This document shows positions 527 to 48,333 of a stretch of DNA of 59,092 nucleotides, in pieces; the stretch's first letter is position 1; each line of letters begins with the position of its first letter. The stretch spans positions 1 to 59,092 of the forward strand of contig WTJD01000029.1 of NCBI GenBank assembly GCA_011524975.1. The letters run 5' to 3'. Position numbers and translations under genes: made by a program. The DNA comes from Lysobacterales bacterium (GTDB lineage: Bacteria; Pseudomonadota; Gammaproteobacteria; Xanthomonadales; SZUA-36). Below the pieces are notes generated by a model, which saw only the letters and a list, made by a program, of their open reading frames with translations, searched no databases and was not told the DNA's origin.

Positions 527-1132
527 TTGAACCAGCCCGCAGCATTTCGTGTTACACAGCCGCCCGTTTCAATCGCTTTGATCATTTTTTGCGCGGTCGT
601 GTTTTTCACGCAGTTCATGCCGGCCAACATGGCGCTCTGGCCCCTGCAAAGCGGGTACTTCGCACCCTGGCAACTGGTCAGCTATGGTTTTCTCCACGGC
701 GGTTTCAACCACCTGTTCTTCAACATGTTCGCCCTGTGGATGTTTGGCCTGCAACTGGAGCGGGTGTGGGGCAGCCAGCGGTTCGCGCTTTACTATTTTG
801 TCTGCATCGTGGGCGCGGCCATAACGCAGCTGATTGTCCAGCAGCTGAGCGGACAGTTCTATCCCACGATCGGGGCTTCCGGCGCCGTGTTCGGTCTCCT
901 GCTGGCCTATGGCGTGACCTGGCCGGAAAATCGCGTGCTGCTGCTGTTTTTCCCGGTGCCGATCAAGGCCAAGTGGTTCGTGCTCATCTACGGCGGCATT
1001 GAATTGATATTCGGCATCACCAACGCCATGCCCCAGATCGCGCACTTTGCCCACCTGGGGGGCTTGCTGTTTGGTGCCGGCCTGCTCTGGCGATGGGGCT
1101 GGCGCCCCGGAATGACCTGGAAGAAGCGGTAG
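527..1132 (+). CDS. Rhomboid-family intramembrane serine protease
   Basis: The 201-aa polytopic protein carries the GASGAVFGLL (GxSG catalytic Ser) and HFAHLGGLLFG (catalytic His) motifs. The TTG start is preceded by GGAGA at 516-520. Confidence 0.8.
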   Translation: MNQPAAFRVTQPPVSIALIIFCAVVFFTQFMPANMALWPLQSGYFAPWQLVSYGFLHGGFNHLFFNMFALWMFGLQLERVWGSQRFALYYFVCIVGAAITQLIVQQLSGQFYPTIGASGAVFGLLLAYGVTWPENRVLLLFFPVPIKAKWFVLIYGGIELIFGITNAMPQIAHFAHLGGLLFGAGLLWRWGWRPGMTWKKR

Positions 1133-1134
1133 AT

Positions 1135-2835
1135 TCAGAGTCCGCCGTGCTCCAGGGGGCGCTCACGGTGCATCAGGATCCACTCCGCATGCTCCTCCAG
1201 TGCCGCGGTACCCACCGCTTTAAGCACACGTCTCTGAAAGTGGATATCTGAAGCGTTCTCTAACAAGCGACCCGCATTTCCAAAGACCCTGGTCATGAAC
1301 TGGTACTGCTTGATCAGTTCACGTTCGGCACGCTTGTGGGAATAAGTGTCGCGTACACCGGCAATCAGCGGCAGCACACCGGTAAGCACCAGCATAACCT
1401 GGAAAGATTGCGGCGACAGTTGCCCGCCCGCAACCGCGAGGATGGCGGCAATCAGTATGCCTGACCACAACGAGATGGCGCCCAAACGGGTGGTGCGTTG
1501 GTAGCCCTTTGCCTTCTGCAGACTCTTTCGATGGTAATAGGCCAGCTGGCCCCCTTCTCCCGATGAACCCACCCATTTATCAATCACCCAGGGCACCCAG
1601 TCATCACCCGGGGCCTCGGTTCGATCTCGCCACAGGCTGGCGGAGCGCATGACGTGACGAATCCACCCCAGATCGACGTCCTGCTTCTGCAGGAAATTGT
1701 CATAGGCGAAAACGGCTGACTGGGTTTCGACCACGCCAGCGAGGTTCCAGAACAATTGCACCCGTAAACCCTCAGCCAGGGCGCGGTAATCCAGATACTT
1801 GCGGTGCCATTCGCGTCGCTCACCAATGGCATGAAAGATAAAGCCTGCCCCGAACAACGCGAGAAACATGTAAATCAGAAACTGTGGCCCTTCGTACTCC
1901 GCGTAGATCAGGAACACCAAGCCCATCATGACGGCCAACAGATGGACCACCATCATGCCTTGATGCACCCGCTTCTGGAAATGGATGGCCAGCCAATCGG
2001 CCTGACCAAACAAACTGTTGACCCGCCTGGCCCCGCCGGGCAAAGGAAAGTCTGAGTTAGCATCCAGCAGTGAATCGGCCTCTGCCAGGATTCGGTCTTC
2101 GTACTTGTGCACGTCTGCCTGGTACTCATGCAACCGTTGCAGAGTGATCCTGTAATCGAACGGCATTTCATCGGCCACCGTTCGCTCGAAATGCGCACTC
2201 AGCCAGTATTCCTGCAGCGGCTCGAGGCCCTCCAATGGCGCCCCGGACTCGCGCTCACGAGAAACCACGATCTGGTAGAGCAGGTCATTTTCATTGTCGG
2301 CCAGCAGATTCGGGGACTCCTCTTCCAGCTCGAATCCAGGCATGACCGCTGTGAGGTGATAGTTGACGACACCCGCCGTACCACCCACCTGCTCATCCGG
2401 CTTGCCATTCCACAAAGCCAACAGAATCTGGCAATGATTGGAGACGAACACACCGAGTTGCGCATACTGCCAGTCTCTGGCGGCACCGGGCGAATTGATG
2501 CACTCGGGCGTGCTGCCCTTGACCAACGGCAGCGGGATAACATGGCCCCGGTTTCTCAGCTTTCGGAAGTTTTCAAGGCCGGCCTGTGTGGCGAAGTCTT
2601 TCTCATATTCCGCAACCTCCATCGGCAGCGGCACGACCAGTGGAATATCGAGGTCGGTAGCCACCTCGGCCACCAACTGGTCCGCACCTTCCGCCAGTGG
2701 CGAAATCAGCTGCAGGTCGAGGCCCGGAAACTGCTCCTGCATGCGCAAGAAAAAAGCCCGAACCTGCTCCCGCAGGTCGGGCTTTTCTGATTCCAACAGG
2801 TCGCGGTGACCAGTGACACCAATGGTCAGGTTCAT
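1135..2835 (-). CDS. Membrane protein with an N-terminal YpsA/LOG-like (SLOG-type) Rossmann domain and two tandem 2-TM (SLATT-like) modules
   Basis: 566 aa. The N-terminal pattern IGVTGHRDL / SPLAEGADQLVAEVA / VVPLPM / ILLALWNGKPDEQVGGTAGVV parallels the strand-loop pattern of YpsA (DUF1273) and LOG. Four predicted TM helices fall at about aa 294-312, 318-336, 451-470 and 478-494. Each pair is followed by a basic/aromatic helix (WHRKYLDYRALAEGLR; YSHKRAERELIKQYQF). It is the last gene of the 6245->1135 cluster. Confidence 0.5.
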   Translation of the reverse strand: MNLTIGVTGHRDLLESEKPDLREQVRAFFLRMQEQFPGLDLQLISPLAEGADQLVAEVATDLDIPLVVPLPMEVAEYEKDFATQAGLENFRKLRNRGHVIPLPLVKGSTPECINSPGAARDWQYAQLGVFVSNHCQILLALWNGKPDEQVGGTAGVVNYHLTAVMPGFELEEESPNLLADNENDLLYQIVVSRERESGAPLEGLEPLQEYWLSAHFERTVADEMPFDYRITLQRLHEYQADVHKYEDRILAEADSLLDANSDFPLPGGARRVNSLFGQADWLAIHFQKRVHQGMMVVHLLAVMMGLVFLIYAEYEGPQFLIYMFLALFGAGFIFHAIGERREWHRKYLDYRALAEGLRVQLFWNLAGVVETQSAVFAYDNFLQKQDVDLGWIRHVMRSASLWRDRTEAPGDDWVPWVIDKWVGSSGEGGQLAYYHRKSLQKAKGYQRTTRLGAISLWSGILIAAILAVAGGQLSPQSFQVMLVLTGVLPLIAGVRDTYSHKRAERELIKQYQFMTRVFGNAGRLLENASDIHFQRRVLKAVGTAALEEHAEWILMHRERPLEHGGL

Positions 2836-2874: not shown

Positions 2875-3396
2875 TCAGCGGCCGCCGGTTCCATCGTTTT
2901 CCATGCGCGGATCGAACCAGATGGTGCGGCCGTCACATTCCGCCGAAACGCGGTACCACAGGCTGTAAGCCGCACTGTTGTCATCCCGGATAGAAATGGA
3001 GTTGCCCCGACCCGTCGGGATGTCGCCGCTGCCGGCATCGGCACCAAAATCTGCCGCCGCGGTCTGGCTCAGGTTGCCCCACGAACCCTTGCCACCCGAG
3101 TTCTCACCACCCAGCTGCACGCCGGTCAACTCCCACATCGAGCCTGACCCGCATATACGATCATTGACCAGCCGGAACGTGATATCACCCCTGCCACTCA
3201 CGCGGACGCAGCCATTCTCCGAACTGTTCACACAGCGGCCATGATTCGAACCCTGCGCGTTGTATTCCAGCGCGGTTTCGCTGTCGTTGACCCTGAGCAG
3301 CACGAGGTTCGATGGCTGCCCCTGGGCCATGGCGAGGCCGGGCAGAAATAACAGCGCCAGCAGTACGTATCGGGAACTTCCTGTTTTCTTATGCAT
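2875..3396 (-). CDS. Secreted Cys-containing protein of unknown function; paralogue of the 5625-6245 product
   Basis: I trimmed the start to MHKKTGSSRYVLLALLFLPGLAMAQG (signal peptide), which has GGAG 9 nt upstream. It shares GC[VM]R[VF], TG[VI]QL, WY[RQ]V[ST]AE.C and the C-terminal DPR.EN.GTG.R with the 5625-6245 protein. Confidence 0.6.
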   Translation of the reverse strand: MHKKTGSSRYVLLALLFLPGLAMAQGQPSNLVLLRVNDSETALEYNAQGSNHGRCVNSSENGCVRVSGRGDITFRLVNDRICGSGSMWELTGVQLGGENSGGKGSWGNLSQTAAADFGADAGSGDIPTGRGNSISIRDDNSAAYSLWYRVSAECDGRTIWFDPRMENDGTGGR

Positions 3397-3451
3397 TGTT
3401 TTTACTCCGTTGGTTAGGTGGCAAGTCGCAGGCACTGTCTACTCCTGCATT

Positions 3452-5563
3452 TCAATCACCGGTACACAATTCGTATTCCCGGCAAAAACTGATGAATTCG
3501 GGTTCGTAGTAGCCTTTCGCCAGCAGGTTCGCAGTATAGCCCTTAGCCGCTTCGCTTCGCTCCTGAAGAATCGCGTTTTGAACCGCCAGTCGCATATGGG
3601 TGCACGAAGGGCTTTCCGACTCGACAATGGGCATTTCCATTATCTCGTTCACATGGGGGGTTAAAGGTACTTGGCCGTGTCGTTGAAAATACCGAAAAGC
3701 AGCGTCGAGCAGAGAAAACTTAAGCAGTTCTATTTGCGGGGCCGCGTCAACTTGCTCACTTGAGTAAGCGAGTGCCTGGTTCAGTACCTCTTCCGCCAAT
3801 TTGGACGCTCCGGCCGATCGCGCAATCCTTTCACGCACGAGCAGGAATGAACCGTATTCTTCACTGAGGTCAACCGGGATAGATTGCCCCCCCTGCAGCG
3901 TGGCCTGCCAAGCTTCATTCAGCTGGTCTGCCTCCGACAGGGCGACAGCCGCGGGTTCTTCCAGTGAGGTCACGGCCAGCAAACGCGAACGCCGCTCCAT
4001 GAGCAGCATCTTGAGCCTGATATCGCTTGGATCAGATTCAATCAGGGTTTCGAGCAGACCAATGGACTCCCGCAAGCTGGCAGCCGCCTGTCCCACAAGG
4101 CCGACATTCAACTGGACCCGGGCCAAACCGCCAAGGCCGTAGCCGAGGAATCGCCTGGCCCGCGGATCGTCTGGGTCGGTCTCGACCTCCTTTCGCGCGA
4201 GTCGCGTGCCTTCGATTCGTGCCTGGAGTGCCCCGCCCAGATCACAGACTTGGAGGTGCGCGTCCGCCAGGAATGCGTGAGACTGTTCCAATTCGCGCTC
4301 ATAATCCGAGTTGCCTGGGTCGAGCACCAAGGCAATCTGGTTGAATTGCAGCGCCGCCTGCAGATATTGCCGAGCCCGCAACGGGTCACCCCGCCGGCTC
4401 CGCTTTTCCAGGCCACCCAGGTTCGAGAGGGCATAGGTCATTTCGAGCACCCATTCCGCATTTTCCGGCTCTGCCCGTAACAACTTTCGTGTAATCCCCG
4501 TGTAAACCAGGAAAGATCGCTCCGCTTCGTCGAAATCGCTGGCGTCCATGGCCATCTGGCCGAGCCAGTACTCGGCCTGGCCCAGTTCAAACAGCAGGGC
4601 CGTGCTTTGATTTTCCCGATAATGTTCTGCGATCAAGGCCCAGGAGCGGCTGAATGCGTCGATGGCATCATCCGCCTGGCCTTGACGCCAAAAGTCAATA
4701 CCTGCCTCGCGCAAGGCGAAAGCCGTGGTGAGTGCACTGTCCCTATCCACGCCGGATTCGCGGAGCAGCGCCTCGAGTTCAGCATCGCTCCATTCCTTGA
4801 GCCGGGCCAGTTCCTCACCGGCCTGCGGCGCCTCGATCAGGCCTGCCACTTCATTCAGCTTGAAGCCCACCAGTTGTTCGGCGGACGCGCGCCGCGCTTC
4901 GGCCGCCGCCTGGCTCTTCTGCGCCGAAATCCGGAAGGTAATCGCCAGCATGATAATCACGGCGACTGCGAGCACACCCACCGTCGTCAGTGCCCAAATG
5001 CGCTGCCGGCGCTGCAAGTCGCGGCGGCGGAGACTGTCCAGCGCAATACCGAGAATGCCGGACAGCAGCTTGAGCAGGGACAGCAGCTTGCCATCCGCCC
5101 ATTTGCGGGCGTCCGCCGCCAGCGGCTCGATTTCCGACCCATCTTCGGCCTCCAGCAGCGCCGGCGGAAAACAATTTTCCCCTTCGCGACCCGCGGGATC
5201 GCCGTCAACGATGACCGCGAAGATCCGGTCGCCGCGGCCCTGCCGGCGAAATTCACGGATCTCCTCGTTAACCCACCGGGACGCGGCCGCCGCCGGTGAG
5301 CAGATCACCACCAACGCACCCGAATCGGCCAGGACCTGCTTGACCTTTGCAGACAAATCCGATCCCGATGACAACTCTTCGCGATCCAGGAAAACCGGCT
5401 GTAAGCGCTTGGGGATGACACCGAACGACGTGTTCTGTCCGACCAGTTTGCCGGGAATGCGGTAACGCTCCAACTGACGGTGAAACCACTTGGCCCAGGC
5501 TTCGTCCGCGTGGTTATAGCTGATGAACGCCTTGTATCTGAAGGAGGACATGTTGCCCGTCAT
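3452..5563 (-). CDS. TIR-domain protein: N-terminal TIR, one TM helix, large C-terminal TPR-like helical-repeat domain
   Basis: The TIR_2-like N-terminus reads YKAFISYNHADEAWAKWFHRQL...VFLDREELSSGSDL...LVVICSPAAAASRWVNEEIREF, with an SxWxxxE-type putative catalytic Glu. The TM helix is IWALTTVGVLAVAVIIMLAITF. About 480 aa of TPR-like repeats follow. The start is ambiguous between ATG 5563 and ATG 5551; the track's 5653 start would overlap the upstream gene. Confidence 0.75.
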   Translation of the reverse strand: MTGNMSSFRYKAFISYNHADEAWAKWFHRQLERYRIPGKLVGQNTSFGVIPKRLQPVFLDREELSSGSDLSAKVKQVLADSGALVVICSPAAAASRWVNEEIREFRRQGRGDRIFAVIVDGDPAGREGENCFPPALLEAEDGSEIEPLAADARKWADGKLLSLLKLLSGILGIALDSLRRRDLQRRQRIWALTTVGVLAVAVIIMLAITFRISAQKSQAAAEARRASAEQLVGFKLNEVAGLIEAPQAGEELARLKEWSDAELEALLRESGVDRDSALTTAFALREAGIDFWRQGQADDAIDAFSRSWALIAEHYRENQSTALLFELGQAEYWLGQMAMDASDFDEAERSFLVYTGITRKLLRAEPENAEWVLEMTYALSNLGGLEKRSRRGDPLRARQYLQAALQFNQIALVLDPGNSDYERELEQSHAFLADAHLQVCDLGGALQARIEGTRLARKEVETDPDDPRARRFLGYGLGGLARVQLNVGLVGQAAASLRESIGLLETLIESDPSDIRLKMLLMERRSRLLAVTSLEEPAAVALSEADQLNEAWQATLQGGQSIPVDLSEEYGSFLLVRERIARSAGASKLAEEVLNQALAYSSEQVDAAPQIELLKFSLLDAAFRYFQRHGQVPLTPHVNEIMEMPIVESESPSCTHMRLAVQNAILQERSEAAKGYTANLLAKGYYEPEFISFCREYELCTGD

Positions 5564-5624
5564 ACCTGCCTGAAGCGCGAACGGCGGGCGCTGGCACCCG
5601 CGGTCGCCTGACGAATTGGCCGCA

Positions 5625-6245
5625 TTATCTGCCCGTGCCCCGGTTTTCGCCACGCGGGTCGGTGACCCACGGGCCGTCCTTGTTGGAACCCGGGCAGGCT
5701 TCTGCGGTCACCTGGTACCAGAAGGTTTTTACGCCATCAGCAGCATCATTGAAGTTGGCGTTGAGCAGCCAGACTTGCGTCGTACCGCTATTTACGCCGG
5801 CCTCATAGGCGTAGCCATTCGACAGGTCGAGCGCCAGGAAGGCGTCGTCCTTGAGCCATTGCTCAGGCAAAACGGTAAAATCGCCTTTATCCCCGCCACT
5901 GCTGGTCGCCAGTTCTGTCGTGGTCAGCTGTATACCTGTAATGACCTCCTTCGCCCCGGAATCGCAGGTTTTGCTGGTTTGCTTGGACCCGGGAAGGTAG
6001 AACTGGACCAGGCCAACCGTGTCTTTCGCAAAGCGCATGCAGCCGTTGTGAGGATTGTTGAGACAGCCCTTGTTGGCCGTATCGACCTTGAGCACACCGC
6101 TGTTCCCCTGGGGTACCAGTTTTATGGAAAACGCCTTGGCGGCAAGCCGGTTACCGCCACCGGTCAGCCCGATCTGAGTTGCACATCCTGTCAATACGGC
6201 TGCGGTCAGCACAGCAATCATCAATCCCTTGACTGGGTTTCTCAT
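5625..6245 (-). CDS. Lipoprotein of unknown function; paralogue of the 2875-3396 product
   Basis: MRNPVKGLMIAVLTAAVLTGC is a lipobox signal (LTG|C). A GGAGAA RBS lies 5 nt before the ATG. Four Cys positions and the C-terminal motif DPRGENRGTGR are conserved with the paralogue. Confidence 0.65.
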   Translation of the reverse strand: MRNPVKGLMIAVLTAAVLTGCATQIGLTGGGNRLAAKAFSIKLVPQGNSGVLKVDTANKGCLNNPHNGCMRFAKDTVGLVQFYLPGSKQTSKTCDSGAKEVITGIQLTTTELATSSGGDKGDFTVLPEQWLKDDAFLALDLSNGYAYEAGVNSGTTQVWLLNANFNDAADGVKTFWYQVTAEACPGSNKDGPWVTDPRGENRGTGR

Positions 6246-6475
6246 AGCCTTCTCCCCGCCGGCCTGAGCGCCGGCTATTTAATTATTGGTTTTCGTAGCA
6301 CGACGACACACTGTCGGTGTGCCGGGATTTTTCTTGTTTTTCGAATTTTCCAACACGGAATATACCCGAAACCCGCGATTTCTGCGCTCAAACGCCCCGA
6401 AAATCCTTCATACGCTTGGCCGCCGGGATGCGCCGAGGGATAATGCGCGCGATTCAGGAAAGCCGCTAACGACTC

Positions 6476-19316: not shown

Positions 19317-21272
19317 ATGAAACCTGGAAGGTCAACTTGGATACTGGCGCTGGCGCTGTGCTTCTCGACGGCAACGATGGCCGCGCCGGGCAAAGGCAAG
19401 GGCAATGGCGGAGGAAACTCCGGTGGCGGCGGCGGAGAATCAGGTGACGCCCTGGTCAGCGTCAGCGACGCGGAGTGGGACGAAACCGCGGTTCGCAAAG
19501 TGCTGGCGGCATTTGCCTATGGCGGGCTTGCCACCGACGCTCAGATTTCCGCCTGGGCGGATATGTCGCCCGGTGATGCCATCACGCAAATCCTGACGTT
19601 CAACCCGAACAATGACCTGCTCTCTCCACCCGATGGGGGTGACAACAGTTCCGCGCATTGTGACTCCGTGGAAGCCATGCAGGACTTCTGGAGCGGCAAC
19701 GATGCGGGCAACATCATGAAGTACGCCGACCGTCACCGTTACGCCACCTTGAGCGGTAGCGGATCGGTGAGCGGCTCGAACCTGCAGCGAACCTGGACCA
19801 AGATGATCAGCACCCGTGGCTGTAATCCATTCCTGCATAAAATGGCGTTTTTCCTCACCAACTATCACGCCGCCATCAGCATTCACAAGACGCGTGGAGG
19901 CCTGATCAGGTCTTACTATGACGACGTTCTTGGCGAGTTGATTCGCAGCGGAAACTTCGTGGATGTCATGACGGTCGCGGCCAGCCACGCGGCCGTCGCG
20001 AGAGGCTACGGGCATCAGAACAGCAAGTACAGAAACAACCGGGAAGCTTTTTTTGGCACCGACGATTTTGCCCGCGAATTTCACCAGCTCTTCTTCCGTA
20101 ATTACGGGGAAACGGAGGATATGGACTACCACGAGGACGTCACCATTGAGCACACAGCGTGGATGCTCAGCGGCATGAACCTCGATAAGGAACAGGGCGC
20201 ATACGGCGCCACCAACAGCAACGACTGGTGGGTCGCGCCCATCGTGTTCACGGATCACTACGACCTCAACAGTTCGCCGCGTTATGTCAAGAACGAAACT
20301 TTCCACTATCACAGCGCGGAGGGCGCGGGCAGCTGCCTTGAGATTTTGAGCAACAACATCTGCGGCGCCAATGCGGGGGATAAAATCGCCGCGCTCGCGC
20401 CCGTCGCGGCCGCCCACCCCGAAAGCCTGGCCAATGTTCCGGTGTACATGGTCGACTTTTTCGCCGACGACAACCTGGACGAGACCAAGTCTGGCCAGAT
20501 CAGGGCGAGCTGGGCAGCGGCGAACTTCGATATGCTTGGTTTCCTTCGCGCCTATGCCACGTCCACGGCATTTCACAGCAGTACGACCTACAAGTACAAA
20601 ACCGCTTTTGACAGAAACCTCTTCCTGCAGAACATGCAGATACTGACGAATGAAGAAAACTTCGCCAAGGATCACTACGACTCACCACACAACCGCATGA
20701 GAGACCAGGGCGCTGAGCCGTTCCACCCGGCGCATGATGTATTCGGCGGGCAGACCGGATTGCAGGCAGCCAACAGCCGCTACCTGTTCCGAAGCGCTAT
20801 GTGGGCGAATGTCAACAGTCCGACCTTTTTTGATGACTACAGCGATGAATACACGCTGGAAGCAGGCACGGACACCAGCCCCGCGCCGGTGTACGTCTGG
20901 CAGAAAGATTGGGCCAGCGTTATTCCCGTGAATGGGAACCTCGAACACCGGGTCGATGAAGTGGCCGTCTGGCTGTGGAACCGGTTTATAGGCGATGGAG
21001 GCAGCAACCTCGACGACATCGCCCGCGCGCAGGTTCATGCCATGCTGGCCACCGGTCACGATCTGGGCTACGCCATGGACCCCGACAACGCAAGCGTGGT
21101 CTACAGCAGCCGTGACATCACGCACAAGAAGGGCGTGGCGCGCAAGCTGGATGAGGCCCACGCGGCATACGTAATGAACGATCTATCGGATTACAACTTC
21201 AACAAACGCATTGGCATGGCCATCAATTTCATCAGCGTTCTGCCATACGCATTTGTCATGGAGGGGCAGTGA
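19317..21272 (+). CDS. Secreted DUF1800-like protein (partner of the DUF1501 protein)
   Basis: It has a signal peptide followed by a Gly-rich tract (GKGKGNGGGNSGGGGG). At 651 aa it sits immediately upstream of a DUF1501 gene, with stop and ATG 1 nt apart, which is the canonical pairing. My direct motif recognition of DUF1800 is weak. Confidence 0.5.
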   Translation: MKPGRSTWILALALCFSTATMAAPGKGKGNGGGNSGGGGGESGDALVSVSDAEWDETAVRKVLAAFAYGGLATDAQISAWADMSPGDAITQILTFNPNNDLLSPPDGGDNSSAHCDSVEAMQDFWSGNDAGNIMKYADRHRYATLSGSGSVSGSNLQRTWTKMISTRGCNPFLHKMAFFLTNYHAAISIHKTRGGLIRSYYDDVLGELIRSGNFVDVMTVAASHAAVARGYGHQNSKYRNNREAFFGTDDFAREFHQLFFRNYGETEDMDYHEDVTIEHTAWMLSGMNLDKEQGAYGATNSNDWWVAPIVFTDHYDLNSSPRYVKNETFHYHSAEGAGSCLEILSNNICGANAGDKIAALAPVAAAHPESLANVPVYMVDFFADDNLDETKSGQIRASWAAANFDMLGFLRAYATSTAFHSSTTYKYKTAFDRNLFLQNMQILTNEENFAKDHYDSPHNRMRDQGAEPFHPAHDVFGGQTGLQAANSRYLFRSAMWANVNSPTFFDDYSDEYTLEAGTDTSPAPVYVWQKDWASVIPVNGNLEHRVDEVAVWLWNRFIGDGGSNLDDIARAQVHAMLATGHDLGYAMDPDNASVVYSSRDITHKKGVARKLDEAHAAYVMNDLSDYNFNKRIGMAINFISVLPYAFVMEGQ

Positions 21273-21273
21273 C

Positions 21274-22710
21274 ATGAACCAGAATCGCAGAGACTTTCTT
21301 CGCACCACCATGCTGGCGTCGCTGGCCGGCGGCGTTGGACTTGGGCTGGGCGCACCGGGCAGGGCCCTGGCGGCCTGCACGACGGCACCCATGCCCCGGA
21401 CACTGATCAACCTCATGTTGTACGGGGGCATGGATTCCCGGTTTGTATTCATGCCCTCTCCATCCCATCCGGATACCGCGTACCTGGACAAGTTGTGGGC
21501 CGCGCGCAGGGCGCTTTACTCCAGCAGCTATACGGATTACGCGACCATGTTCGCCAATGAATACCTGCTCACCAATGATCCGGGTGGCGGTCCGTCATTT
21601 GGTATCTTCAAGCAGTGTGGATGGCTCAAGTCCCAGTTTGATCAGGGTCGCGTGGCCGTCGTTGCCAACAGCTTTTGCTCCCGCAACCGGAGGCATGATC
21701 AATCCCAGTTGAACGCCAACACCGGTGAACCCCAATATGATCGGCTGATTTACAGCCGAGACGGCTGGGGCGGCAGGCTGGCGGAACAATGCGGTGCATC
21801 CGTGAAAACCGTGGAACTCAGCCACGAAGTCTCCGTGTTCGCGCAGGGCACAGATACAGGTGACCGGCTGAAACAGGTGGTCCACGCGCAGGACACGAGA
21901 AACATTGCTCTGCCCAACGAGGACCCGACTTCGCCCAGGACCCATCGAAAGAATGTTTTGGCACGCGCGCTGAAGTCCTACTATGAGGCACGAGGCGAAG
22001 AAACTTCGGGTTCGAATTCGCCTGAACGAGTCTTTTTCCAGCACAACGCCGCATTCAGAGCCTTGGGTGATGAAGTCGAGGCCAGGCTGGATGCCTGTGG
22101 GCCGCTGCCCGCGGAGCTCTCTGGCCTGAGCCTTAACTCAGGTCACTTCGCGCAGCAGTGCCGGAATCTGTATGACGTTTGCCAGTCACCCGACCTGTTC
22201 AATGTCCGCCTGATGTCCATGCGCTATAACGGGTGGGATACGCATCACACCCAGCATAGCCGGCTGAGCAGCAATCTGGCAGATGTATTCGGCGCCAATG
22301 GCGGCCTTGCCACGGCTTTTCAACAGATCGACACGCTGCCCGGTTCGACCAATCAACCCGGTGATCAACTGACGCTGTTCGTATCCTCGGATTTTGGCCG
22401 ACAACTGATCGCCAACGGCAACGCGGGAACAGACCATGGCCGCGGGATTTACACCATCTTGCTGGGCGCGCAGGTCAATGGCGGGGTCTACGGCGAAATG
22501 TTTCCCGAGCGGGAGGCGGTTGCGGATGAAAACGGCCGGGTACCACTGGAGACTTCCGGAGCGGATATTCTTGGACAAACATCGACAGAGCGCGTCTTGT
22601 CCCAGGCCTGTGAATGGATGCAGCCGGGCAGCGCGGCGGCCGTGTTCCCGAATGCGGCAAGCTCGGATGTGGAGAGCCCGGGGCTGCTTGACAACCTGAT
22701 GTCTGTTTAG
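21274..22710 (+). CDS. DUF1501-family (sulfatase/phosphatase-fold) protein with a Tat signal
   Basis: I trimmed the start to MNQNRRDFLRTTMLASLAGGVGLGLGAPGRALA (twin-arginine signal). It carries the GWDTHHTQ, SSDFGR and GTDHGRG motifs typical of DUF1501. Confidence 0.75.
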   Translation: MNQNRRDFLRTTMLASLAGGVGLGLGAPGRALAACTTAPMPRTLINLMLYGGMDSRFVFMPSPSHPDTAYLDKLWAARRALYSSSYTDYATMFANEYLLTNDPGGGPSFGIFKQCGWLKSQFDQGRVAVVANSFCSRNRRHDQSQLNANTGEPQYDRLIYSRDGWGGRLAEQCGASVKTVELSHEVSVFAQGTDTGDRLKQVVHAQDTRNIALPNEDPTSPRTHRKNVLARALKSYYEARGEETSGSNSPERVFFQHNAAFRALGDEVEARLDACGPLPAELSGLSLNSGHFAQQCRNLYDVCQSPDLFNVRLMSMRYNGWDTHHTQHSRLSSNLADVFGANGGLATAFQQIDTLPGSTNQPGDQLTLFVSSDFGRQLIANGNAGTDHGRGIYTILLGAQVNGGVYGEMFPEREAVADENGRVPLETSGADILGQTSTERVLSQACEWMQPGSAAAVFPNAASSDVESPGLLDNLMSV

Positions 22711-45819: not shown

Positions 45820-48333
45820 CTAAAACGGCAGCTCCAACTCCGGCTCGATCGCCAGCATCTGCATGCGAAACGCCTCCTGGATCACCTGCAAAGCCTCCTC
45901 GCTCTCGGCATCGAACCTGACCACCAGGATGGGCGTGGTATTGGAGGCCCGGCACAGACCCCAGCCGTCTTCGAAGTCGGCACGAATGCCGTCTATCGTG
46001 TTGACCCGGGCATCAGGGAAGTTGGCCTGATCCTGGAATTTCCGAATGAACGCATGGTTGGCGCCCTCGGTCATCTGCACTTTTAATTCAGGCGTACTGA
46101 CGCTGTTGGGCAGAGCGGTGAGCACCTCCTCCGGTGAACGCTCGTCCTTGGCGAGAATCTCCAGCAGCCTGGCGGCGGAATAAATGCCACAATCAAACCC
46201 GTACCAGCGATCACTGAAGAAGAAATGGCCGCTCATTTCACCCGCGAATGGCGCGCCGGCTTTGCGCATGTGGTTCTTGATCAGTGAATGACCGGTCTTG
46301 TACATCTCCGGCTCACCCCCCGCCTCACGAATCACCTGGTCGAGATGCCCGGTGCACTTCACGTCATAAATAATGGGCGCGCCCGGATGACGGCTGAGAA
46401 TCTCCGTGGCGAACAGCATCATGACCCGGTCAGAGTAGATGATCTCCCCCGAAGGCGTCACGACACCGAGCCGGTCCGCGTCACCGTCAAACGCCACACC
46501 CAGGTCGGCATTCATCAGCCTGACCGACTCGATCAGATCGCGCAGGTTCTCGGGCTCGCTGGGGTCAGGGTGGTGATTGGGGAAATCACCGTCCACTTCG
46601 TCGTAAAGGGGCAGCACCTCGGCGCCGATCGCACGAAGCACGTCGGCCGCGTTCACCCCACCAATGCCGTTTCCACAGTCGGCGACCACCTTCAAAGGCC
46701 GCTCGAGTTGAATATCGGAGGCGATTCGATCCCGGTAACGATCCAGCGCATCGGTGCGATTCACGATGCCCTCACCGGTCTTGAGATCACCGGATTCCAG
46801 GCGTTCGAACAAAGCCCTGATCTTGTCTCCGGCAAGGGTTTCGCCCCCGATCATGACTTTGAAACCATTGTAATCCGGAGGGTTGTGACTGCCGGTGACC
46901 ATGACGCCTGAACCGCTGTCACACTCGTTGGCCATGTAGTACAGGACCCCGGTGGGCACAGCACCGATGTCGACCACATCACAACCGGTGCTTGAAATAC
47001 CCTCGACCATGCCTTCCGCCAGGTCCGGGCCTGAATGGCGGCCATCCCGACCAACGACCACGGGTGCGGCATTGGCTTCCAATGCGGCGCTGCCGATGGC
47101 CTGACCAACCCTGTAGGCAATACCCCTGTCCAGGGTCTCACCCACAATGCCCCGGATGTCATAGGCCCGGAAAATATCTTTGCGCATATCAACCTCCGTT
47201 TCTGGCTGCGGACGGTGCTCTCTCCGGTGCTTGTCCGGGTCAAAACTCACATCTTCCAAATTGACCTCGGGCATGGGATCAGGCTCGGGTTCGGGTTCAG
47301 GCTCGGTCTCGGATTCCTCGAGCAGATCGGCCCCGGACTCCGGCTGCGATGACCCAAGCGCTTCTGTTGCCTCCTCTTCGCCCTGCGGGGCCATGTCCTC
47401 TGCAACTGCCTCCAGCATGGCGGGGTCTTCCTCGAGCTCACGCAGGGTTCGAGCCAACTGCACGCGCCTGATGCCCCCGAACGCCACCAGCAATCCGCCC
47501 AGGACAAACAAGGCGAGGCTCACACTCGAGGGCATCCCTGCTGCCTGCTGACCCATAGGCAAGACGACACGGAAAAGCGTGCCGGGCACGTTGAGTCTGT
47601 ACGGTGAAGCGCCCAGTAGCGACGAGTCTCCGAAAGACTTCAGCGCGGTCGCTGAAAACCGACCGTTGCGTTGCTCCAGACCGATATACCCCGCTTCCGG
47701 TATCGTCATGTTGAACCCGCCAAGAACCAGCCCGATGTCTGCCTTGATCAACAAAACGGCCTCAGGATCACCTTCGCGCGGGATCGTCACCGCACCGGCC
47801 ACCACGCGCTGACCGTTGACCTCAAAGGACTGCACGTCGGCCTGCCCCGACTCGAGGGCTTCCAGCGCCATGGCCATGATGATGAAATGATGGTCAGTCG
47901 GGCTGTCGTCGAGGGCAAGGACCTGCTCTGGATCGATGATGCTCAAGCCGACAAATTCGCTCACCCGGCCAGCAAGATATTGTTCGAGCTCCGCTGTGCG
48001 GTCCGGATTCTCCATGGCCAGGCCGGCGAGTTCGAGCACCTGCTCATCCTCGAACAGCCGCGTGAATGCTGTCACTGCTTCCCGCATTTGACCAACGGCT
48101 CTTTGCCCCTGGGCGAGCGCCTGATCAGACTGCTGTTCACCCGCCGACCCCACGAACAGCATTCCGGCCGCCACCGCGATCAAGACCGCGCCCGAGAAAA
48201 TGAGAAACAGGGGTTTCTGCAGGAATCCGGGCAGCTTCACCGGCTTCTTTGTTTTGGCAGGTTGGTCAGATTTGCGTTCTTTGGGCGATTCCTCAGCGTT
48301 GCTGTCGCCTTTACGCCTGAACAGTTGCATCAT
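45820..48333 (-). CDS. algC: Phosphomannomutase/phosphoglucomutase, long form with a ~380-aa membrane-anchored N-terminal extension
   Basis: The C-terminal ~455 aa carry [28 protein letters not shown] (active-site Ser), FDGDADR and GEMSGHFFF. The N-terminus has two TM segments and an acidic [10 protein letters not shown] linker. Its start overlaps the dut stop by 4 nt. Confidence 0.9.

Follow-up and report, generated by a model that had tools for sequence, protein, structure and literature searches.

We analysed a 59,092-nucleotide stretch of DNA (hereafter the window) from a Lysobacterales bacterium (GenBank assembly GCA_011524975.1, contig WTJD01000029.1, positions 1 to 59,092 of the forward strand) and examined an open reading frame (ORF) on its minus strand (positions 1135-2835), which starts with ATG and encodes a protein of 566 amino acids (aa), hereafter the target. 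Sequence analysis and structure modelling show the target as a predicted cytoplasmic-membrane protein, with a cytoplasmic YpsA-like SLOG head and a C-terminal half made of two SLATT-type transmembrane (TM) hairpins. Because this SLOG-SLATT protein adjoins a TIR signalling enzyme, it probably serves as both receiver and effector for a Thoeris-like signal derived from nicotinamide adenine dinucleotide (NAD). We call the locus Thoeris-like but refrain from assigning it to a Thoeris type, since phage defence is only predicted, the libraries of defence profiles are silent and there is no defence island.

The target gene and its family

The target ORF is a real, conserved gene. An earlier reading of the sequence (the original prediction) had quoted the motifs IGVTGHRDL, SPLAEGADQLVAEVA, VVPLPM, ILLALWNGKPDEQVGGTAGVV, WHRKYLDYRALAEGLRVQLFW and YSHKRAERELIKQYQFM, all of which are present in the translation. 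A word-indexed search returned more than 3,700 homologues, and nearly all of the 120 homologues listed were full length (560-590 aa), with 57-76% identity. An exhaustive search of cluster representatives yielded 6,659 clusters at 50% identity with an E-value (E) of at most 1e-3; 958 clusters reached E<=1e-30, and the alignments mostly spanned residues 3-562. The architecture had been called unusual, a claim that did not survive this search, as the same architecture makes up a very large family (at least 6,600 such clusters). Mean column identity was 71% among 30 close relatives. Across a diverse set of 60 relatives with 28-53% identity, to which all counts out of 60 refer, residues H10, W142, R351, E355, G542, E548 and W552 were invariant. 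One distant relative of similar length, 27% identical over aa 41-358, bears the RefSeq name "DUF4231 domain-containing protein".

Contigs from salt-marsh metatranscriptomes covered nt 1313-2401, a part of the target gene, at 95-99% nucleotide identity, and the DNA runs with the target gene were marine (seawater, coral and algae metagenomes). The AlphaFold2 (AF2) model of the full-length target had a predicted local distance difference test score (pLDDT) of 81.7 and a predicted TM-score (pTM) of 0.82. Searches of PDB sequences gave no matches, either with the single target sequence or with a 60-sequence profile, and in the literature on DUF4231 and on Thoeris, nSTAND and TM we found nothing specific to the target family. 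Apparent fusions of 1,500 aa at three loci (L069, L165 and L169) are probably upstream extensions of the ORF in GC-rich DNA; the extension at L069 had no Pfam match, and that at L169 overlaps a TIR ORF in another frame.

The N-terminal SLOG domain

We modelled residues 1-262 separately with AF2 (pLDDT 75, pTM 0.78) and searched the model with Foldseek. The top match was YpsA of Bacillus subtilis (2nx2; E 2.1e-6, probability 1.0), with a TM-score of 0.62 normalised to YpsA and essentially the whole YpsA chain aligned. DprA (E 1e-4) and ShosA (E 1.7e-4) ranked next, and the top ten matches were all SLOG proteins at probability 1.0. The later fold matches, namely TRPM2 (6d73; E 9e-3, probability 0.93), the ThsA SLOG domain with bound 3'cADPR (7uxs; E 1.2e-2, probability 0.92), further ThsA structures (8wc0 and 6lhx), EcThsA, TM1055, a MoCo carrier protein and TT1887, were all SLOG as well, and LOG-like structures were among them. 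The three-layer alpha/beta Rossmannoid fold of the model superposes on solved SLOG proteins. When the full-length model was searched, the best PDB matches were ShosA and DprA, with probability 1.0 but E of about 1e-2. The search with the N-terminal model thus bears out both the SLOG fold that had been proposed for this domain and the parallel that had been drawn with YpsA.

The target itself had no match to any SLOG family of Pfam, NCBIfam or PADLOC, and the Pfam YpsA model was silent. Among the relatives, Pfam YAcAr (a YpsA-related SLOG family) gave weak matches (E<=1) in 20 of 60, the best at E 3e-3. Using tblastn, we matched residues 5-159 to a 149-aa protein of a TIR-caspase-SLOG operon on an Agrobacterium Ti plasmid (34% identity, E 1e-13), and found a second match (28% identity, E 1e-6) to a Rhizobium protein (RefSeq "DUF1273") within a TIR-caspase-DUF1273-TIR array. 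The closest plasmid-borne relatives of the target SLOG domain are small SLOG proteins of TIR-caspase operons. Such operons, with a SLOG protein of 149-159 aa and in part a further TIR gene, occupy L092:3642-5483 and L091:3617-5986 on Agrobacterium Ti and Rhizobium plasmids.

The near-invariant positions of the SLOG domain comprise an LAxGxD motif (47-52) together with G6, G9, H10, R11, D12, W142-D143-G144 and G152-T153, each of the latter being invariant or at least 90% conserved in the 60 relatives. In the same set, both of the glycine-rich or polar loops were conserved, the one that follows strand 1 and the one that follows the late core strand. The catalytic motif of LOG, PGGxGTxxE, is absent; the loop reads QVGGTAGVVNYH (VGGTAGVVNYH), with no Glu at the catalytic position. 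Because this motif is missing, we read the SLOG domain as a putative binding domain rather than a LOG-type enzyme. Two conserved stretches had a pLDDT below 50 in the monomer model: a SLOG loop at aa 162-183 (SPNLLADNENDL), which is invariant, and aa 374-385 (FAYDNFLQKQ), which is among the most conserved stretches of the protein. Their high conservation, combined with such low confidence in a monomer, suggests an interface or a ligand lid.

The membrane half

Hydropathy analysis placed four TM helices in the C-terminal half, arranged as two tight hairpins with outer loops of 3-6 residues, in line with the two 2-TM modules of the original prediction. Lysine and arginine (K/R) are confined to the outer flanks of each hairpin, which predicts a cytoplasmic location for the SLOG domain, for the segment between the modules and for the C-terminal helices. 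In the AF2 model, an amphipathic helix follows each hairpin.

A SLATT/DUF4231 layout had been proposed for both modules. For module 1 it held at threshold: Pfam DUF4231 scored 27.3 bits against a gathering threshold (GA) of 24.7 at aa 288-360 and matched 49 of the 60 relatives, and NCBIfam SLATT_3 matched aa 274-357 below threshold; SLATT_3 matches also occurred in 32 of the 60 relatives. Module 2 stayed below threshold with both Pfam SLATT_1 (aa 430-552; 16.3 bits against a GA of 26.3) and NCBIfam SLATT_1 (23 bits against a cutoff of 41), but SLATT_1 matches recurred in 36 of the 60 relatives, the best at E 1.6e-6. Two of the invariant residues, R351 and E355, lie in module 1, and two, E548 and W552, in module 2. 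When the modules were compared with each other by hhalign, the hairpins came into register but weakly (probability 12%, E 2.4e-3). Because the modules fit different SLATT subfamilies and align so weakly, we rejected a recent internal duplication, and the earlier term "tandem duplication" was an overstatement. We regard an architecture of one SLOG domain and two SLATT-type modules as highly probable.

The TIR gene and its exported partners

The target is the last gene of a same-strand cluster in which it is preceded by genes for a lipoprotein, a TIR-TM-TPR protein and a 186-aa exported protein, in that order; its start lies 39 nt beyond the 186-aa gene, and only 2 nt separate its end from a rhomboid gene that converges on it. 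The neighbouring TIR gene, to which the original prediction had also pointed, is real (3452-5653, minus strand). Its TIR domain scored 61.6 bits with TIR_2 and 35.8 bits with ThsB_TIR; the protein also gave weak matches to SAVED_TIR and ThsB, and reached 25 bits with ThcB4 against a cutoff of 220. In an alignment of 44 sequences (the window protein and 43 orthologues), residues S125, W127, V128 and E131 of the TIR domain were at least 95% conserved. This SxWVxEE stretch is what we take to be the SxW(C/V)xxE motif, which holds the catalytic-glutamate position of TIR NADases. With Glu E131 retained, the TIR domain looks catalytically competent, as far as its sequence can tell.

All 44 sequences had more K/R residues before the TM helix than after it (mean 6.2 versus 2.8), and 41 out of 44 had exactly one strong hydrophobic peak. 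Because of the K/R excess before the TM helix, the positive-inside rule predicts a cytoplasmic TIR domain and a periplasmic TPR part. A juxtamembrane motif, CFPPAL...EPLAADAR...DGK, was strongly conserved. The 186-aa exported protein and the 206-aa lipoprotein, whose genes flank the TIR gene, are paralogues (30% identity, E 2e-8, conserved Cys), and both have a C-terminal DPRxENxGTG motif. Neither matched a family in Pfam, NCBIfam or PADLOC, and the target likewise had no PADLOC match. A 275-aa ORF antisense to the lipoprotein gene (window 5616-6443, plus strand) is probably spurious, a by-product of the GC-rich sequence. Scanning for promoters and terminators returned counts equal to those of shuffled controls, and the window contained no tRNA genes and no Rfam matches.

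We counted neighbourhoods at 82 genome loci and at a further 27 metagenome loci with full flanks (40-58% identity). A TIR-TM-TPR gene accompanied by a small exported protein was found at 49 of the 82 genome loci and a TIR gene alone at 5; a TIR-TM-TPR gene was hence adjacent at 54 out of 82. The small exported protein occurred alone at 11 out of 82 loci, several of them on truncated contigs. At 7 out of 82, the same position held a DUF4062 (TIR-like, sub-threshold)-nSTAND1-TM-TPR gene, a gene for a secreted protein of about 700 aa, or both (both partners at 5 loci, only the nSTAND gene at 1, and the secreted protein with a TPR fragment at 1). The remaining 10 out of 82 had neither partner type. 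Among the fully flanked metagenome loci, a TIR protein of 690-850 aa adjoined the target homologue in 17 out of 27.

The small-protein family lay directly upstream of the target in most relatives, and it keeps this place next to the effector even at some loci without a TIR gene (L052, L058, L059, L079, L081 and L109). In relatives with 45-49% identity (L065:1859-7933, L066, L070, L072 and L074), the pair of TIR-TPR and small-protein genes is replaced by genes for a DUF4062(weak)-nSTAND1-TM-TPR protein of about 1,250 aa and a secreted protein of about 700 aa with no known domain, in the same order, on the same strand and upstream of the effector. Two tandem pairs of small exported protein and TIR-TM-TPR precede a single effector at L011, L014 and L025, which fits several sensors feeding one receiver. 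The distant relative with the RefSeq name "DUF4231 domain-containing protein", a protein of 577 aa, is encoded on a Caballeronia plasmid, where TIR and WD40 genes follow it.

Inheritance of the locus

In relatives with at least 50% identity, spread over dozens of species, the block lies between ExbD/2-hydroxyacid dehydrogenase/YcgL genes and rhomboid/Tat genes. Among 63 loci, we recorded flanking rhomboid genes at 41, YcgL at 42 and ExbD at 35, counts that are minimum values, given the many short contigs. The remainder of the window also belongs to the core chromosome, with glmS and glmU as well as genes for a TRAP transporter and for the F1Fo ATP synthase, and GC content is uniform. The effector had a mean identity of 56%, which correlated with that of the flanking genes (r 0.5-0.9), and it is conserved like its housekeeping neighbours, whereas the TIR-TPR protein had a mean identity of 40% and no correlation with the flanks (r 0.05). 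These correlations indicate that strong constraint has acted on a vertically inherited effector, whereas the sensor diverges fast. In marine Gammaproteobacteria the effector gene is a fixed part of the core chromosome, in contrast to a gene of a mobile defence island.

The rhomboid gene that converges with the effector stop occupies window 527-1132 (plus strand), and L006 has the same arrangement. At L001 and L002, an acetyl-CoA synthetase gene stands between the rhomboid and effector genes, a local gene gain or loss within the syntenic block.

Comparison with known systems

An architecture of SLOG plus four TM helices has already been noted as a putative effector type. A 2025 preprint lists "SLOG and 4TM" among the putative TIR-associated (Thoeris) effector types, with examples from Streptomyces sp. 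GKU 895 and Ca. Nitrospira nitrosa COMA1 (bioRxiv 10.64898/2025.12.03.692087, Tables S1/S2). The IMG genes of this type are 2862473379 and 2691454910. The target resembles this type in its SLOG domain, its four TM helices and its adjacent TIR gene, a likeness of architecture label. It differs in that the TIR proteins of the listed systems are short and stand alone, whereas that of the target is a TIR-TM-TPR protein, and in that the target locus belongs to the core genome, is inherited vertically and encodes exported partners. A search that started from the TIR sequences of the preprint found a homologue of the Nitrospira-type TIR on a contig without the effector and no match for the Streptomyces TIR. 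Three features appear to be new here: a TIR-TM-TPR sensor that spans the membrane and has exported partners, its nSTAND1 counterpart, and a fixed place within a syntenic core region.

In type I Thoeris, the SLOG domain binds 3'cADPR (bioRxiv 10.64898/2025.12.03.692087). ThsA of this type (SIR2-SLOG) uses its SLOG domain as the receptor for a TIR-made isomer of cyclic ADP-ribose (cADPR), and the domain matches the target N-terminal domain in fold; unlike the target, ThsA has an NADase (SIR2) and not a membrane module as its output domain. YpsA and DprA also come ahead of it among the structural matches, and no PADLOC or NCBIfam Thoeris profile matches the target. Type VII Thoeris pairs a ThsB TIR protein with the SLATT effector ThsH and uses canonical cADPR as its signal; ThsH is annotated as a SLATT-domain protein, with ligand pockets between SLATT protomers (bioRxiv 10.64898/2025.12.03.692087). 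This type shares with the target a TIR gene beside a SLATT membrane effector and a proposed ligand-induced oligomerisation that breaches the membrane, but the target adds a SLOG head and combines two unlike SLATT modules in a single chain; the contrast with ThsH is drawn from the description of that protein.

More broadly, SLATT domains, as defined by Burroughs et al. 2015 and cited in later papers, are predicted nucleotide-responsive pore formers in conflict systems (PMC7159879, PMC9503650). SLATT effectors of CBASS and other systems have in common with the target a 2-TM hairpin with flanking helices and an association or fusion with SLOG domains or nucleotide-generating enzymes. The target departs from them in carrying two non-identical modules, one DUF4231/SLATT_3-like and one SLATT_1-like, with a strongly conserved cytoplasmic segment between. 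YpsA (Pfam YpsA/DUF1273), the best fold match, shares the first-strand motif xTG(H/Y)(R/K), but it is small and soluble and has a link to cell division, whereas the target domain contains extra strands and a conserved insert some 40 residues long (aa 146-183) and is fused to membrane modules. In TRPM2-type channels, an N-terminal SLOG-like MHR1/2 domain binds ADP-ribose (ADPR) and gates a cation channel. Such channels offer a functional analogy only: they, too, unite a cytoplasmic SLOG fold and a membrane permeation module in one chain, with NAD-derived gating of the kind proposed for the target, but their membrane domain, a 6-TM channel that forms tetramers, bears no relation to the 2-TM hairpins of the target.

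Proposed mechanism and alternatives

We lean towards a mechanism in which effector and TIR protein work together, the TIR domain making an NAD-derived nucleotide that the SLOG domain binds, whereupon the SLATT modules alter membrane permeability. A cue in the envelope or periplasm would switch on the TIR domain through the predicted periplasmic TPR part and the two exported paralogues, and the TIR-TM-TPR protein would then produce an NAD+-derived nucleotide, either ADPR or a cyclic-ADPR isomer. This product would bind the SLOG domain of the target, and on binding the SLATT modules would rearrange or oligomerise and raise the permeability of the membrane. The membrane would depolarise and growth would stop, an outcome that has been proposed for the SLATT effectors of CBASS and of type VII Thoeris. 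Envelope sensing of the trigger, which the predicted periplasmic TPR part and the exported partners suggest, is the least supported step. The role may be either anti-phage (abortive infection) or a physiological response of the envelope.

A bolder version, which we put forward tentatively and consider rather doubtful, is an "outside-in" TIR pathway with the logic of animal Toll-like receptors. Signals would pass from the TPR part and exported Cys proteins across the TM helix to the TIR domain, and from there by a messenger to a SLOG-SLATT channel. The pathway would be a vertically inherited part of the core genome in a large gammaproteobacterial clade from marine habitats and sediments, with a diversifying sensor and a frozen effector, and sister lineages would use a TIR-like STAND-TM-TPR protein and a 700-aa secreted partner instead.

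Several observations weigh against the proposed receiver and effector role in a Thoeris-like system. The effector is intact at four loci (L017, L019, L026 and L095) where nearby TIR-TPR and exported genes are both absent, and it keeps all the conserved motifs that we checked there, except for one substitution in the YLDYRALAE helix motif at L017; dependence on an adjacent TIR gene is therefore not absolute, unless a TIR protein acts in trans. Members of about 30% identity often stand solo among housekeeping genes or beside other enzymes (RelA_SpoT-RyR), and in some cases a small AF2212-like gene precedes them. The locus belongs to a syntenic core region that is passed on vertically, not to a defence island, and the defence models of PADLOC and NCBIfam do not recognise the effector. 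The evidence for an operon consists of small gaps and a common strand. Two "SLOG and 4TM" systems, likened to the target by architecture label only, gave no phage defence in Escherichia coli (bioRxiv 10.64898/2025.12.03.692087).

The same TIR-SLOG-SLATT biochemistry could instead serve housekeeping envelope signalling, with an effector that tunes ion flux or permeability without killing and with the TPR part and exported partners reporting the state of the envelope. Much of the genomic setting agrees with this reading, including the syntenic position between ExbD/YcgL and rhomboid/Tat genes in dozens of species, near glmUS and the atp operon, the uniform GC content and an effector whose identity (mean 56%) tracks that of flanking housekeeping genes (r 0.5-0.9). 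The transcripts in salt-marsh metatranscriptomes and the TPR part, predicted to be periplasmic in 44 out of 44 sequences and encoded alongside exported partners, agree with it as well. However, combinations of TIR, SLOG and SLATT with a known function have so far all been conflict systems, the sensor evolves fast and uncoupled from its flanks (40% identity, r 0.05), like immune sensors, and one distant homologue (about 29% identity; L084:8001-12674) sits in a defence island with a DUF4011 helicase, PLD, reverse transcriptase, and HamA plus helicase (Hachiman). That homologue is directly followed by the gene for a 963-aa RelA_SpoT-RyR protein and has a CHASE2-TIR gene 7 kb away. On balance, we consider a purely housekeeping role unlikely, though worth keeping in view. 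Less probable still is a SLOG domain that acts independently of TIR as an enzyme (an N-glycosidase or nucleotide-processing enzyme, as in the LOG clade), with the SLATT hairpins as a mere anchor. The invariant H10, the near-invariant R11/D12 and W142-D143-G144 do resemble an active or tight binding site, some SLOG clades are enzymes (PMC9503650), the gene is kept intact without a neighbouring TIR gene in several genomes and solo distant members exist. Nevertheless, PGGxGTxxE gives way to VGGTAGVVNYH without Glu, the best fold matches are non-catalytic members of the YpsA, DprA and ThsA type, and adjacency to TIR or TIR-like genes is strong. The membrane-proximal SLATT helices, with R351, E355, E548 and W552 invariant, are the most conserved part of the protein, which is not expected of a passive anchor.

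An ordinary transporter or unrelated membrane protein that resembles SLOG and SLATT motifs by chance is effectively refuted. The lack of any SLOG model at curated threshold on the target sequence and the PDB sequence and profile searches without matches would agree with such a protein, but the N-terminal fold search returned SLOG superfamily members as its top ten, all at probability 1.0, and DUF4231 scored above its gathering threshold. We rejected a transporter fold: the ABC-type Foldseek matches had a probability of at most 0.4 and a root-mean-square deviation of about 30 A, which is noise. The check for a conventional transporter fold thus leaves the SLATT reading in place.

The preferred reading, in which a TIR-made nucleotide gates the SLOG-SLATT effector, would bear on a wider field. 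Signalling by nucleotides that TIR proteins make is known from mobile anti-phage systems, whose sensors are cytoplasmic. The target locus points to a very large family of predicted effectors, and it departs from the known kind both in an effector that sits in the core chromosome, conserved like its housekeeping neighbours, and in a paired membrane-spanning TIR protein whose sensor part is predicted to be periplasmic. If the reading is true, bacterial TIR signalling would reach beyond intracellular phage sensing to envelope sensing, and the family would offer a tractable model of a SLOG domain gating SLATT modules, with Elongatibacter sediminis CH-27 (L028) as a culturable carrier. Missing periplasmic partners might then also explain the failure of "SLOG and 4TM" systems in heterologous E. 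coli tests.

Annotated features and other observations in the window

Table 1. Positions in the window of the target, its domains and the genes of the same-strand cluster
Feature	Position	Strand	Evidence
Target gene, 566-aa inner-membrane protein with predicted YpsA-like SLOG domain and two SLATT-type 2-TM modules	1135..2835	minus	ORF, homologues, AF2 model
SLOG domain, aa 1-225	2161..2835	minus	Foldseek of N-terminal domain model, conservation, YAcAr matches in relatives
Long linker helix from SLOG domain to first membrane module, aa 226-268	2032..2160	minus	AF2 secondary structure
SLATT module 1, aa 269-366: TM1 294-312, TM2 316-334, then helix WHRKYLDYRALAEGLRVQ	1738..2031	minus	Pfam, NCBIfam, TM and K/R analysis
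Cytoplasmic inter-module region, aa 367-429, with highly conserved FAYDNFLQKQDVDLGWIRHVMR motif	1549..1737	minus	Conservation, AF2 (partly low confidence)
SLATT module 2, aa 430-557: TM3 451-469, TM4 476-494, then helices ELIKQYQFM and ALEEHAEWILMHRERP	1165..1548	minus	Sub-threshold profiles, TM analysis
Small exported protein, 186-aa ORF, likely start MHKK..., Sec signal peptide ending AMA/QG	2875..3435	minus	ORF, paralogy
TIR-TM-TPR protein, 733-aa ORF: TIR aa 43-152 (nt 5198-5527), TM aa 222-240 (nt 4934-4990), C-terminal part TPR-like	3452..5653	minus	Profiles, alignment
Lipoprotein of 206 aa with lipobox LTGC, whose gene opens the same-strand cluster	5625..6245	minus	ORF, paralogy

Elsewhere in the window, a phosphoglucomutase/phosphomannomutase (PGM) ORF of 837 aa (45820-48333, minus strand) has its PGM domains from residue 386 onwards; its N-terminal 380 residues or so had no Pfam match at E<=1e-5 and may represent a fusion or an over-extended ORF. 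The core region also contains an adjacent pair of DUF1800 and DUF1501 genes (19317-22710, plus strand).

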